39,493 nucleotides of DNA, from the IMG/VR virus record IMGVR_UViG_3300045988_085990, positions 1 to 39,493 of that record; one strand, 5' to 3'. Both the position numbers and the translations under genes were made by a program. Positions 7,278 through 32,863 of this stretch are shown here, piece after piece. The number at the start of each line of letters is the position of its first letter. Position 1 is the first letter of the stretch. Source of the DNA: a virus. The notes beneath the pieces were generated by a model. That model did no database searches, had not been told where the DNA came from, and saw nothing but the letters and a program-made list of their open reading frames with translations.

Positions 7278-8087
7278 CAATCAGCCTATTCGTTCTGCTT
7301 TCCAACCCTTTGAGTGATGTCGTTTTCCTTTAGCCACTAGACGTAAATTTTGGGGTGAAAGATTATGCTCTCTGCAAAAAACAGCAAAAGAAAAAGGCTC
7401 ATATATCGTACCATCAGGTGCAATGAGTCTGAATTTTTCACCCTGTCCATAATTATGAGGAACATTACCTTTTTGAAAAGTAGTAGGATGACAGTCACCA
7501 CATACTGTCCCTGACTTGCGTTTTGGTAAATATTTACCACAAATAGGACAACGAACTGTTTTTCTGTTTCCACCTGCCATTGAGTTCCACCCCATATTCA
7601 TTTTAGGGCGTAGATTATATTCCATTGCTAATGCTTCTTCTTTTGGTAACATAGCAATTAAATCAATTTGAATATTATCCTTACCCAGTTGTCTTAGAAT
7701 TGTGCCAACAGGTCTCTTACTACACATATGCTGACTAAGACGATAGGAAAGACTACGGCGAGTAATACCCACATAACCTTCCTGTATATTTCTGTTTCCT
7801 ACTTCATGAATATGGTACACTTTATATAATCTTGTTTTTTCTCTAAACAATAATATCACTCTCTTTTCTTTTTAGTGTTACGGTACTTCGTTAGGGTACC
7901 TCACTATATTGCTATAGTGTTCAGACTATATCTTCTATCAAAAGATAGTGCGCTGTTTCCACCGAACCATTGCGGTGTACTAATAGTCGTTGAACGTTTC
8001 CTATAAAAGGACTTCGCTGCTGATTGTCTTAGAAAGAGTTCCCAGCAATTAAACGCATTTTTTAACGTAGGAGCAAGGACGTATTTT
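7278..8087 (-). mobile_element. Group I intron (810 nt) in the terminase large subunit gene, carrying a GIY-YIG homing endonuclease ORF
   Basis: The 5' exon end AGGGGU pairs with intron GCUCCU (8069-8074), with a U.G pair at the splice site. The adjacent intron GUCCUU (8075-8080) is a perfect complement of the first 6 nt of exon 2 (AAGGAC), giving P10. The intron ends in G. The region 7860-8060 has several hairpins, including a GCAA tetraloop. Confidence 0.8.
7281..7859 (-). CDS. GIY-YIG homing endonuclease (intron-encoded, about 192 aa; start uncertain, GTG or TTG)
   Basis: It has YKVYHIH...GYVGIT...R..H...E.N (the GIY-YIG module), a Cys4 zinc finger (CPICG...CGDC), NUMOD3-like FQKGNVPHN and a C-terminal HTH-like segment ending KGW. 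Confidence 0.85.
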   Translation of the reverse strand: MILLFREKTRLYKVYHIHEVGNRNIQEGYVGITRRSLSYRLSQHMCSKRPVGTILRQLGKDNIQIDLIAMLPKEEALAMEYNLRPKMNMGWNSMAGGNRKTVRCPICGKYLPKRKSGTVCGDCHPTTFQKGNVPHNYGQGEKFRLIAPDGTIYEPFSFAVFCREHNLSPQNLRLVAKGKRHHSKGWKAERIG

Positions 8088-9185
8088 ACCCCTACCCGAT
8101 GGGTCTATAGCCATAACACACCCTGTATACTTAGCTGTCTCCTTGCTTCTACTATGCTCACGGTAGAAAAAGTCACCCTTAATGGCGACACAGGGAAGGT
8201 CGTTCAGGCGATACTCATAACCACTTGACCAAGACCACTTCAAAGAAGTTTCATCCATATCCACATTAGACACTATCAAGTCCTGTGTCTTCAGGGGGTA
8301 TTTTTCGTAGTCAGACAAGTTAGTATTCAGTTTGAACTGCAAAGAAAACCCTGCTTTACCATAGGAGAGCCTACGTTCCTCGATTTCTTCTTCAGGGAAT
8401 CTGCGAGGGTCAGTCGGCTTTCCTGCGTACAGCGTGGGGTTTTTGTCGTAAGGGATAGCAATAAAAGGAGCTAATTTGTCCCCGTAATACTCACGTTCTT
8501 CAGGTGTCTCAGGGTATACCAATGGAAAAATATAGCAGGAATACCCACGATTCTGAAGCTCATTGTACAGCGACATTTCGTTCTGTGGAGTACCGAGGTA
8601 TATAACCTTACTTCTATCCCCCGGCTTGATAATAGCGTCAAATTCCTTTACATCCTCAAACAGCTTGTCTCTCCGTGTCTGTGTGCTGGAGTTGTTGGGT
8701 ATCTCCACGTCATCGGCGATCAATATGTCTGCACGGCTCCCTGTTATCTGACCCGTAATACCAACAGACTTTACAGAGGGGGAAATATCCGCTACGGCTT
8801 CCCCAACATCAAAAAGGTTCTGTGTGTTACGCTGTCCGTCACGAGGTTTTAGATGAGACAAAAAGTCTAGTAAGTAGATTATCTTTCGGATAAACACTGC
8901 GTTTGCATCTGCTCTGTCTTTACTTGCAGAGATAATGAGACACTTCAGTTGAGGGTCATTCCAAAGTGACCACACAACATAAGCACAAGTGATGAAGGAC
9001 TTAGCTACCCCACGGAACCCTTCAATAATGTATCTCTTCTCAGGGCATTTCATAAGAAGAGTTGCGATTGCATACTGTATGTCTGTTGGTTCAGGAAGAG
9101 CGATTTCATACCAGAGAATAAACAGGAACTTCCTGAAGTCTTTCTTAGCCGCTTCAATTTGCTCTGCTGTCCATTGAACTTGCAC
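8088..9185 (-). CDS. Terminase large subunit, exon 1 (366 aa; GTG start)
   Basis: Strong by-eye match to T7 gp19: FRGVAKSFITCAYVVWSLWNDPQLK, SPSVKSVGITGQITGSRADILIADDVEIP, VIYLGTPQ, YGKAGFSLQF, IDPSGRG. AGGAGG lies about 9 nt upstream of the GTG. Confidence 0.93.
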
Positions 9186-30547: not shown

Positions 30548-31165
30548 CTTACTGTATTCCCTTATTACTAAGGGTGTCGGACTATATCATTAGCATATGA
30601 GGTTTATGCTACTAGGCGCTTCGGGTAACAGGGGAATCACACCCCTACCCCTACTCCTTACGGATAGTCTCTACGCTTTCCACTCTCTAATCCACTTACA
30701 TGTGGTAGAGAACGACACACCAAATACTTTAGACAAAGCTATACCTGTACAATGATTTTTCATCCAATATTCTTTAGCTTTATCCTTACGTTTCTTATAA
30801 CGCAAGTGGTTATCTTTCTTAGCATGTTCACTTCCTTCGAGCATTTGAAGGTGTTCAATATTACAACATGCTCTATTTTTGCATATGTGGTCTATTTCAT
30901 ACCCTTCTGGTATCTTACCATATGTCTGTTCCCAAACATAGCGATGATACATAACCAATGGGGATCTACCCTTACCATTACGTGTGGGGCGGTATCTGAA
31001 ATAACCATCTGCATTTAATTTGTGTGACGTAGGGACAATGCATCCATTATCCAGTTTCTTCAAAATCAATGGTTTACCTCGCATATGTCCTCCTGTGGCT
31101 TAGTTCGGTATTGCCCCTTAGGGGTTTCACCGAGTTCACCTAGTTTAATGTGCACAATGAAGTCT
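30548..31165 (-). mobile_element. Group I intron (618 nt) in the DNA polymerase gene, carrying an HNH homing endonuclease ORF
   Basis: The exon end GUGCAU pairs with intron GUGCAC (31150-31155), with a U.G pair at the splice site. UCAU just 5' of it can pair with exon 2 AUGA (P10). The intron ends in G. The 3' part has hairpins, including CCCTTA-GTAA-TAAGGG (a GNRA loop) and a GACTAT...ATAGTC pairing. Confidence 0.85.
30671..31084 (-). CDS. HNH homing endonuclease (137 aa), intron-encoded
   Basis: HRYVWEQTYGKIPEGYEIDHICKNRACCNIEHLQ (HNH with a Cys cluster). AGGAGGACAT SD. It has a C-terminal HTH-like tail. Confidence 0.88.
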   Translation of the reverse strand: MRGKPLILKKLDNGCIVPTSHKLNADGYFRYRPTRNGKGRSPLVMYHRYVWEQTYGKIPEGYEIDHICKNRACCNIEHLQMLEGSEHAKKDNHLRYKKRKDKAKEYWMKNHCTGIALSKVFGVSFSTTCKWIREWKA

Positions 31166-32863
31166 ATGCACCCATGCCATAAGCTGAAAATCCTTGCCAT
31201 GGTCTAACCCAAGGTTCAGCAAGAGTTCCTCTGTACGTACAATCCAGTATTTACAGACGATAGCTCCTGCTGACTGTAACAAGAGATTCAGCGCACTGTG
31301 GATTGACCGAGTATAAAGTAAGCGGCCATCCAGACCCTTCAGGTAACGTGTCTTCCATTCCCTTTGTCTCATTTCCACGTTGTAAGTAGACAAAAGGTTT
31401 TTGACACTTTGCTGGAGCTTCTTGATAGCAGGTGTTGCCTTTAAGAACTTCTTCCGTAGTTCTGCACCATGCTCCGCTGTACCTCCAACAATTTCTCCAA
31501 TCTTTGCGTCTCCTGCACCATAAAGGAACCCATACACAAACGTCTTTGCCATGTTTCTCTCTGGCAATCCTGCGGCCATCTGATTCTTCGTGTGGATGTC
31601 CCCTTCGACACATTCATGTGCATACTCCCCGTTGTCAAAAGGATATAAGTAGTGGGAGAGACACCTAAGTTCCAGACCACAGGCATCCACGCCAGCCTGA
31701 AACCAGCCATCGGGAACCGTGAATAACTCACGACACTCTGCACCGTATGGAGAACCAACATGAGGAACCTGTGCAATGTTGGGATGTGAGTGTGTCGCTC
31801 TACCTGTAATAGCACCATTGGGATTCACTCGCCCATGTAAGCGACCATCAGAAGACACAAGTTTCATCCAACCATTTTTACCATCCCTGAGCTGTCCTAA
31901 CCGTTTAGTCAGGAGTAAGTTAGTAGAAAACAGCTCTGCCAACTCCTTGACTTCTTCAGAAGCTTTCGGGTCTTTCTGAATGAGCTTGAATGTCTCTTCG
32001 TTCAGCTGTATGTTCCCGTTGTCGTTCCACATGTCGTCATTGTCGAATGGATAGCCATAGTGGTCTTTCAGAATCCACAGGATTTGCTGGCGGCTGTTGG
32101 GGTTGAACTCCTTGTATCTCTGAATGGGAACGCCCTTCTTATAACCCATCTTCGCATTGTCTCTCTTAGGGACAAACACTTTGTCGGGAATCTTTGGGCA
32201 TTTGTCCGCCAACTTAGACAACACTTTCTCCTGCTCTGCAAGAAGGGTAGACAAAAGCTTTTTAGCCTTATCCATATCAAAGGTAAAGCCATTCTTCTCC
32301 ATCTTCTGCATCAACCACTGTGCCTTATGCTCCAGATCAAGAGCCTGTACCGTTGTCTTCTTCTTACGACATTTGTTGTATAGAGCTTCTGTGACAACTA
32401 CGTCCTGCTCATTGTAGTCCAGCATCTCTTCGTTGAAGATCGCCCAGACATCATCTGCTTCATAGTCGCTGGCATATGTCCCCTTGAGAACTCCTAAGCG
32501 ATAGCCATACGCCTTCAGAGAGTGTGAGCCATAGAGTCGAGAAGGTAAGACACCTGTTCTTGTTAGTTTGTTGTCGATGTAGTTAATCTCAGAGAATACC
32601 AAACGAGCATAGACCAACGTGTCTACTACTTTGTCTTTTCCTATATGGAACCACGGAAACACCTTAGAGATAGCTGGAATGTCGAACGCTATAATGTTAT
32701 GCCCACAAATTGTGTCACCGCTCATAAGCATCCGCACCCCAGCTTCTACTTCGTCAGGGCTAAACCTGTACATTTTATTCTCTTTGGTGTCCTTGATACA
32801 CATACAGTGAATTTTTGTCATATCCTCCAGCAAACCGTCTGTTTCAATGTCGAATATTAACAC
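31166..32863 (-). CDS. DNA polymerase (family A, T7 gp5-like), exon 1 (566 aa)
   Basis: Exo motifs FDIETDG, GHNIIAFDIP and YNEQDV. Pol motif A is DACGLELR. Motif B is RNMAKTFVYGFLYGAG. Motif C is interrupted after MAWVH. Confidence 0.93.

Follow-up and report, generated by a model that had tools for sequence, protein, structure and literature searches.

The DNA polymerase gene of the phage examined here is interrupted within catalytic motif C, between VH and DE, by an insert that we take, with a probability of about 0.93, to be a mobile group I intron of subgroup IA2 belonging to the phiI/W31/13a family. The window, the whole stretch of DNA that was analysed, comprises 39,493 nucleotides (positions 1 to 39,493 of IMG/VR virus record IMGVR_UViG_3300045988_085990). 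The case is built on the anatomy of the insert, its homology and conservation, the covariation of its helices, the empty-site alleles of related phages and its lateral distribution; from these we infer that the window copy splices and that its endonuclease is active.

Results

The polymerase gene is split between His and Asp-Glu of motif C

The genes around the polymerase all lie on the minus strand. The polymerase ORF (32863-31145, minus strand) matched the Pfam families DNA_pol_A (1.8e-28) and RNase_H_2, the latter corresponding to the N-terminal exonuclease domain. It reads as far as ...DFQLMAWVH, after which RLHCAH and a stop codon follow. An insert of 618 nt (31165-30548, minus strand) separates this part of the gene from its C-terminal codons, and its removal restores the reading frame. 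The genes and signals of the region are as follows.

31166 to 32863, minus strand: DNA polymerase exon 1, 566 codons with a GTG start, ending ...MAWVH of motif C
30548 to 31165, minus strand: predicted group I intron of subgroup IA2, 618 nt, starting after U31166 and with G30548 as its terminal nucleotide
31145 to 31147, minus strand: in-frame UAA, six codons into the intron, which terminates the unspliced reading (RLHCAH and stop)
31089 to 31094, minus strand: Shine-Dalgarno sequence AGGAGG of the HNH gene, 4 nt ahead of the ATG, at a position conserved in homologues
30671 to 31084, minus strand: putative HNH homing endonuclease gene, 137 aa plus stop, 414 nt, in the P6 loop
30395 to 30547, minus strand: DNA polymerase exon 2, 51 aa plus stop, whose first residues are the catalytic Asp-Glu of motif C

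Exon 1 spans the exonuclease domain and the polymerase domain as far as MAWVH, as seen both with Pfam and in the alignment with T7 gp5. The translation of exon 2, DEQQIACRTEGIAEIVIKEAQQAMRDTQRYFNFRCQLDTEGKIGKNWADCH (DEQQIACRTE...NWADCH), follows in frame once the 618 nt are removed. The predicted splice would join CAU to GAU GAG, the 31166/30547 junction reading ...GGGUGCAU/GAUGAGCAA..., and would give a polymerase of 617 aa with an intact HDE motif. The final 122 residues of this product align without gaps to positions 575-698 of T7 gp5 (E 5e-46; 1skr and others), and its MAWVH/DE superimposes on the MAWVHDE of T7 with no gap at the junction. No in-frame ATG, GTG or TTG was found between the upstream TGA and GAT, the first codon of exon 2, and a search for ORFs of 30 aa or more covering exon 2 returned none.

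A first-pass annotation of the window had placed an insert at 30548-31165, between H and D of motif C, with a polymerase ORF that ends in RLHCAH and a stop after MAWVH and a C-terminus that lies 618 nt downstream, in frame once the insert is removed. The coordinates and all the sequence elements it listed were recovered, on the minus strand, and the point of insertion is fixed by the gapless T7 alignment together with the empty-site alleles described below. Judged from the sequence, a correct annotation of the family A, T7-type polymerase of this phage has to join two exons, with a product of 617 aa.

Covariation argues for a group I fold of the insert

A search with the Rfam group I intron model, which the first-pass annotation had suggested as a check, gave a divided answer: RF00028 matched the window intron at E 1.9e-5 when only an E-value threshold was applied, but the score of 29.6 bits lies below the gathering threshold of 50 bits, at which the polymerase intron was not matched and an intron in the terminase gene was the sole match in the window. 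The elements J6/7-P7, P8, J8/7-P7' and P9 were convincingly aligned in the window, and the 5' half of the model was misplaced into the ORF. When the model was run on L028, a natural ORF-deleted copy that is 94% identical to the window intron, the score rose to 41.9 bits (E 2e-9), likewise below 50, and P1, P3, P4, P5, P8 and P9 were placed correctly. The shortfall from the gathering score is attributed to the 414-nt ORF in P6 and to the P7.1/P7.2 insert.

Because the Rfam score was below threshold, homologues were collected. Using blastn, 152 phage records were matched at approximately 70% identity over a stretch that begins 15 nt ahead of the splice site and extends through exon 2, and 29 loci came from viral contigs scanned with the HNH protein; the structure alignment consists of 19 sequences from these blastn records and HNH-scan loci. 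A model of 63 base pairs, covering P1, P10, P3-P9 and P7.1/P7.2, was written by hand from the window sequence, with its helices numbered from 1 to 14. Its main elements are listed below; pairs are called compensatory where both sides change.

31166 to 31171, minus strand: P1 5' strand, exon GUGCAU, with U31166 as the predicted 5' splice-site U of the U·G pair
31150 to 31160, minus strand: internal guide sequence, UCAUU (P10 5' strand, 31160-31156) followed by GUGCAC (P1 3' strand, 31155-31150)
31137 to 31143, minus strand: P3 5' strand CUAGGUG, with partner CGCCUAG at 30618-30612; 5 of 7 pairs compensatory
31105 to 31133, minus strand: P4 (UCGGU/ACCGA) around P5 (CCCC-UAA-GGGG), helices 4 and 5, aligned to P4/P5 of RF00028 in L028
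31095 to 31104, minus strand: P6 5' strand AC-UAA-GC-CAC, helices 6-8, with AU/GC/GU exchange at the outer pair
30664 to 30669, minus strand: P7 5' strand GACUAU (R element), with partner AUAGUC at 30585-30580 (S element)
30623 to 30663, minus strand: P7.1, GUA linker and P7.2 (CC-GUAA-GG; GGG-G-UAGGGG...CCCCUG-UUA-CCC)
30592 to 30610, minus strand: P8 hairpin AGCAUA...UAUGCU, helix 13; 5 of 6 pairs compensatory
30559 to 30574, minus strand: P9 hairpin CCCUUA-GUAA-UAAGGG, helix 14; 100% paired, 4 of 6 pairs compensatory

Standard pairs occupied 96.8% of the cells across the 19 homologues, compared with 86.0% in shuffled alignments and 35-48% when the partners were slid by 1-3 columns. Compensatory changes were found in 28 of the 63 pairs (18.2 in shuffles), and they are concentrated in P3, P7.2, P8 and P9. 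The covariation score was 0.353 against 0.149 in the control, a value reached in none of 500 shuffles and in no slid control. Since a structure derived from the window favours the percentage-paired measure, RNAalifold was also run on the ORF-less columns. It recovered P1, P3, P4, P5, P6, P7.1, P7.2, P8 and P9 unaided; P7 falls outside its prediction because it is a pseudoknot. On the strength of this comparative model, we regard the group I fold of the insert as real.

At the splice sites, P1 is modelled between exon GUGCAU (31171-31166) and intron GUGCAC (31155-31150), with the U·G pair present in 19 of 19 homologues. P10 would pair UCAUU (31160-31156) with GAUGA (30547-30543), the first 5 nt of exon 2. 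The two guide-sequence helices (1 and 2) are 98.2% and 95.8% paired in the 19 homologues, the second figure being that of P10. The last intron nucleotide is G in the window (G30548) and likewise in the 18 homologues aligned to it. P7 (helix 9) is 99.1% paired and hardly varies, as would be predicted of the helix that binds guanosine, and it agrees with the RF00028 consensus GACUA / GAUAUAGUC. Next to it, P7.1 is followed by A-GUA and then by P7.2, whose inner stem is GGGGUGUGAUUCCCC; 7 of the 11 pairs in these helices (10-12) are compensatory and the GUAGG bases are invariant. P6 is the model's weakest and most weakly supported part, because its 3' strand is coding: the partner at 30683-30673 (GUG-GC-GU) also forms the final codons and stop of the HNH ORF. 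The P2 helix is absent from the intron architecture. Subgroup IA2 is distinguished by P7.1 and P7.2 lying between P7 and P3' and linked by G-U-A (PMC3428280), and the window intron has both helices with the GUA linker.

The pairings picked out at first pass correspond to named helices of this model. GUGCAU/GUGCAC with U·G at the splice site is P1; UCAU/AUGA is P10, which proved one pair longer; GACUAU/AUAGUC is P7; GGGGUGUGAUUCCCC lies in P7.2; AGCAUA/UAUGCU is P8 and CCCUUA-GUAA-UAAGGG is P9. The proposed terminal G is G30548, and the assignment to group I itself is supported by structure and covariation, by RNAalifold and by the Rfam alignment of L028.

The P6 loop holds a full-length HNH gene

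The ORF inside the intron matched Pfam PF13392 (HNH_3) with 60.8 bits and 9.9e-17, against a cut-off of 24.8. Its product shares 64% amino acid identity with the HNH protein of the phage 13a intron, and the DH..N..CCN..HL motif (DH-x4-N-x4-N-x2-H) is kept in every complete homologue aligned. The Pfam match, the 13a homology and the conserved motif bear out the HNH endonuclease that had been proposed within the insert. The sole match when PDB sequences were searched with the HNH protein was a T-cell receptor (E 0.015), which was judged spurious. When the window was searched for a second copy of the intron or of the HNH gene, none was found.

Related genes were met in other arrangements. Free-standing homologues of the intron HNH protein (60-62% identical) lie directly downstream of an uninterrupted polymerase in L021 (2501-2902) and L022 (2246-2617), which resembles an arrangement that Bonocora and Shub reportedly discussed in 2009 in connection with the origin of mobile introns. 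The homologous ORF of L021 has no obvious in-frame ATG and adjoins a run of five A's. The L028 copy (2420-2838) carries an internal deletion of approximately 200 nt in the HNH ORF and looks like a degenerating endonuclease gene within an intact ribozyme. In L012, L014 and L018, the HNH ORF has no UAG before P7 and continues through P7 and P7.1 (...WKVQRLSETE followed by a stop), which illustrates the 'core creep' described in PMC3073962.

The intron resembles those of T7-group coliphage polymerases

In the RefSeq annotation of phage 13a (NC_011045), gene 5 consists of two joined pieces with an HNH CDS between them, and its junction is the same as that of the window gene: the 13a sequence reads ...catggcatgggtgcat/aaac... 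at the 5' side and ...acagaaag/gatgag... at the 3' side (...tgggtgcat/a...g/gatga). The two introns share approximately 75% nucleotide identity over their whole length. The introns of phiI and W31 (Bonocora & Shub 2004) are described in PMC3428280 as IA2 introns without P2, with GUA-linked P7.1/P7.2, an ORF in P6a and an insertion at site 881 (E. coli Pol I numbering); the W31 endonuclease, I-TslI, is named there as a related HNH homing endonuclease. The precedent among T7-like coliphages noted at first pass is stronger than had been claimed, with the same family at the same site in 13a and in phiI/W31 (881, PMC3428280). The likeness to phiI and W31 (absence of P2, P7.1/P7.2, an HNH ORF in the P6 loop and the H/D site) is drawn from descriptions, and the sequence comparison is with 13a. 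We take site 881 to be the His of the HDE triplet in Pol I motif C (QVHDE). The window intron is assigned to this described phiI/W31/13a family and is not a new kind of intron.

Within the family, the window intron differs in the sequence of P8 and carries compensatory substitutions in P3, P7.2 and P9. Its host gene is far more distant: the 617-aa window polymerase is only 41-48% identical to those of the T7 group. The nearest sampled relatives of the window phage are metagenome contigs, and its best matches among named records are human faecal phages. A related ribozyme 3' half with an HNH gene was also seen in L023/L024 (2388-3001), in a polymerase 41% identical to that of the window; the 5' end of that intron is different, without the GUGCAU/GUGCAC P1, and its P7.2 is shortened.

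IA2 introns with HNH genes in phage family A polymerases are also known from cyanophage Pf-WMP3 (I-PfoP3I) and from SPO1, SP82 and Bastille (I-HmuI family). The Pf-WMP3 intron likewise has its ORF in P6a (PMC3428280). The introns of Pf-WMP3, SPO1, SP82 and Bastille are inserted at site 674 and that of phiL7 at 676, as compared with 881 here (PMC3428280).

Close relatives carry an empty site

A scan with exon 1 returned relatives with polymerase amino acid identities of 96-98% (13 loci), 79-91% (6 loci) and 62% (2 loci), and motif C was uninterrupted in all of them, for example ...ATGGCATGGGTACAC/GATGAACAG.... The 13 relatives with 96-98% identical polymerases, which include L032-L037, have an empty site of the type ...TGG GTA CAC/GAT GA.... 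The alleles of the close relatives read ...TGGGTACAC/GATGA..., the L032 type being TGGGTACAC/GATGAA and the L035 type TGGATACAC/GATGAG. Compared with the spliced form of the window gene, intronless relatives are exactly colinear and 91-94% identical in nucleotide sequence.

The polymerase tree places the window among 13 intronless rows, nested in a clade of 14 (SH-aLRT 97, 100 and 99 for the nested clades). The window is the only intron-bearing member of that clade among the data examined, in which many of the contigs compared carry one IMG dataset number. The distribution of the intron on the tree requires at least six gains or losses. The nearest intron copies, in L003-L008 and L028, are 93-94% identical to the window copy over the intron and 98-99% identical in the 5' ribozyme part, whereas their polymerases share 53-54% amino acid identity with that of the window, and nucleotide identity amounts to 66-69% over the final 300 nt of exon 1. 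These comparisons indicate that the window copy is a lateral acquisition, because close relatives have an empty site and the nearest introns sit in polymerases that are only 53-54% identical.

The exon sequences next to the insertion site were compared in the same way. Exon 1 ends in GUGCAU in 19 of 19 intron-bearing alleles, as compared with 5 of 31 intronless ones. Relative to its six closest intronless relatives, the window differs at position -4 from all six (GTG instead of GTA) and at position -1 from four (CAT instead of CAC). These synonymous flank differences would fit either a short co-conversion tract or selection for P1. On the other side, the opening 52 nt of exon 2 are identical to those of the intronless L035 and L037, and no conversion of exon 2 was detectable in the comparison with intronless relatives. 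Co-transfer of exon 2 from a T7-like donor had been considered, prompted by its 63% identity to T7 (a hand count) against 41-48% for exon 1. It was rejected, as the first 52 nt match L035/L037 and the C-terminus is the more conserved part in all comparisons.

Presence and absence of inserts was also seen elsewhere in the material. The exon-1 protein of the intron-bearing 13a (L001) is identical to that of the intronless viral contig L051, so that the same presence/absence polymorphism exists within the T7 group itself. Five close relatives of the window (L042, L043, L046, L047 and L049) and four other loci (L003, L004, L012 and L028) have further inserts of 655-690 nt that interrupt polymerase motif B (residues 442-448, AKTFVYGFLYGAG). 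The insertion points are two, close to each other: one follows AKTF and the other GFL. Within the inserts lie ORFs of 147-203 aa that show Endo VII/HNH-like motifs (VVDHNH...LLCHNCN). The equivalent position in the window is at approximately 31520-31540 on the minus strand, where motif B is uninterrupted. Counting the motif C insert, this phage group has three or more polymorphic sites for intervening sequences in a single gene.

A second, unrelated intron lies in the terminase gene

The gene for the terminase large subunit contains an intron at 7902-8176 (minus strand) that scores above the RF00028 gathering threshold (80.4 bits, E 4.9e-19). Like the polymerase intron, it is a group I intron with a homing endonuclease inside, in an essential gene of the same phage. 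A second and unrelated intron in the terminase had been anticipated at first pass and is upheld: the two introns have only a core-like stretch of 27 nt in common. A common origin of the two was rejected, as sequence comparison gave no meaningful similarity.

Discussion

Proposed splicing and homing, and the alternatives

We propose that the intron is transcribed within the polymerase mRNA, where the UCAUU-GUGCAC guide would form P1, including the U·G pair, by binding the last bases of exon 1, and P10 by binding the first bases of exon 2; the P3-P9 core with P7.1/P7.2 would fold. A free guanosine would then attack after U31166, exon 1 would attack after G30548 under the guidance of P10, and the ligated mRNA would encode the 617-aa polymerase. 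Splicing would be obligatory for the phage, because the truncated protein would be missing the motif C Asp-Glu and no in-frame start codon is available to exon 2. Ribosomes entering the intron would halt at the UAA (31147-31145), just beyond the guide sequence, and the HNH protein would be translated from its own AGGAGG ribosome-binding site. During mixed infection, the HNH enzyme may cut or nick intronless polymerase alleles near the insertion site, and repair would then copy the intron into the cleaved allele; the analogy is with I-PfoP3I, for which cutting or nicking of intronless alleles has been shown (PMC3428280). Pointing indirectly to homing are the scattered distribution of the intron on the polymerase tree and the donor-type bases of the exon flank.

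The alternative that survives best, although we consider it unlikely, accepts splicing and denies homing: the HNH protein would be inactive or would have been kept for a different purpose, for instance to exclude competing phages or to assist splicing. The spacing of only 4 nt between its Shine-Dalgarno sequence and the ATG is in keeping with this, and so is the divergence of approximately 7% between the intron and its nearest sampled relatives, which implies that the invasion was not very recent. Against it, the ORF is intact, the catalytic motif is conserved, and the six or more gains or losses demanded by the polymerase tree accord with an intron family that is still mobile.

It is very improbable that the insert has decayed into an intron unable to splice, leaving the polymerase gene broken, whether in a defective genome, a non-viable variant or an assembly chimera. 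A score below the RF00028 gathering threshold would be compatible with decay, and degenerating copies do exist elsewhere (L028, short of approximately 200 nt of the HNH ORF). In the window copy, however, all 63 modelled pairs are standard (the model having been built on this copy), the U·G pair and the terminal G are present, the R and S core elements agree with the Rfam consensus, the HNH ORF has kept its full length and its motif, and exon 1 ends in GUGCAU, as is needed for P1.

Some phages do have split family A polymerases, but the separate translation of a 572-aa N-terminal and a 51-aa C-terminal chain without RNA splicing, which the first-pass annotation had itself raised against an intron, is scarcely credible here: the exon 2 frame has no ATG, GTG or TTG and no ORF of 30 aa or more covers it, the two chains would part within motif C, with its His on one and the metal-binding Asp-Glu on the other, and the RNA in between has a group I fold whose pairs covary.

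Implications

The mobile-intron reading that we prefer reveals no new mechanism. With it, the phiI/W31 intron family would reach beyond T7-group coliphages into a distant T7-like lineage whose nearest relatives are metagenome contigs. The reading also bears on annotation, as automatic gene callers would report such a locus as a truncated polymerase and an orphan HNH gene, which is the case in several database records. The intron-plus and intron-minus alleles, with exons 91-94% identical, form a natural pair suited to measurements of homing, co-conversion and target tolerance.

The odds seem to us evenly balanced that the intron jumped across a deep divergence between phage lineages with an acquired exon-side tract of approximately 12 nt or less (GCAUGGGUGCAU). 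If this is true, the target of the HNH enzyme would be little beyond the near-universal codons of motif C, and the intron family would be a broad-range invader of family A polymerases in gut T7-like phages.
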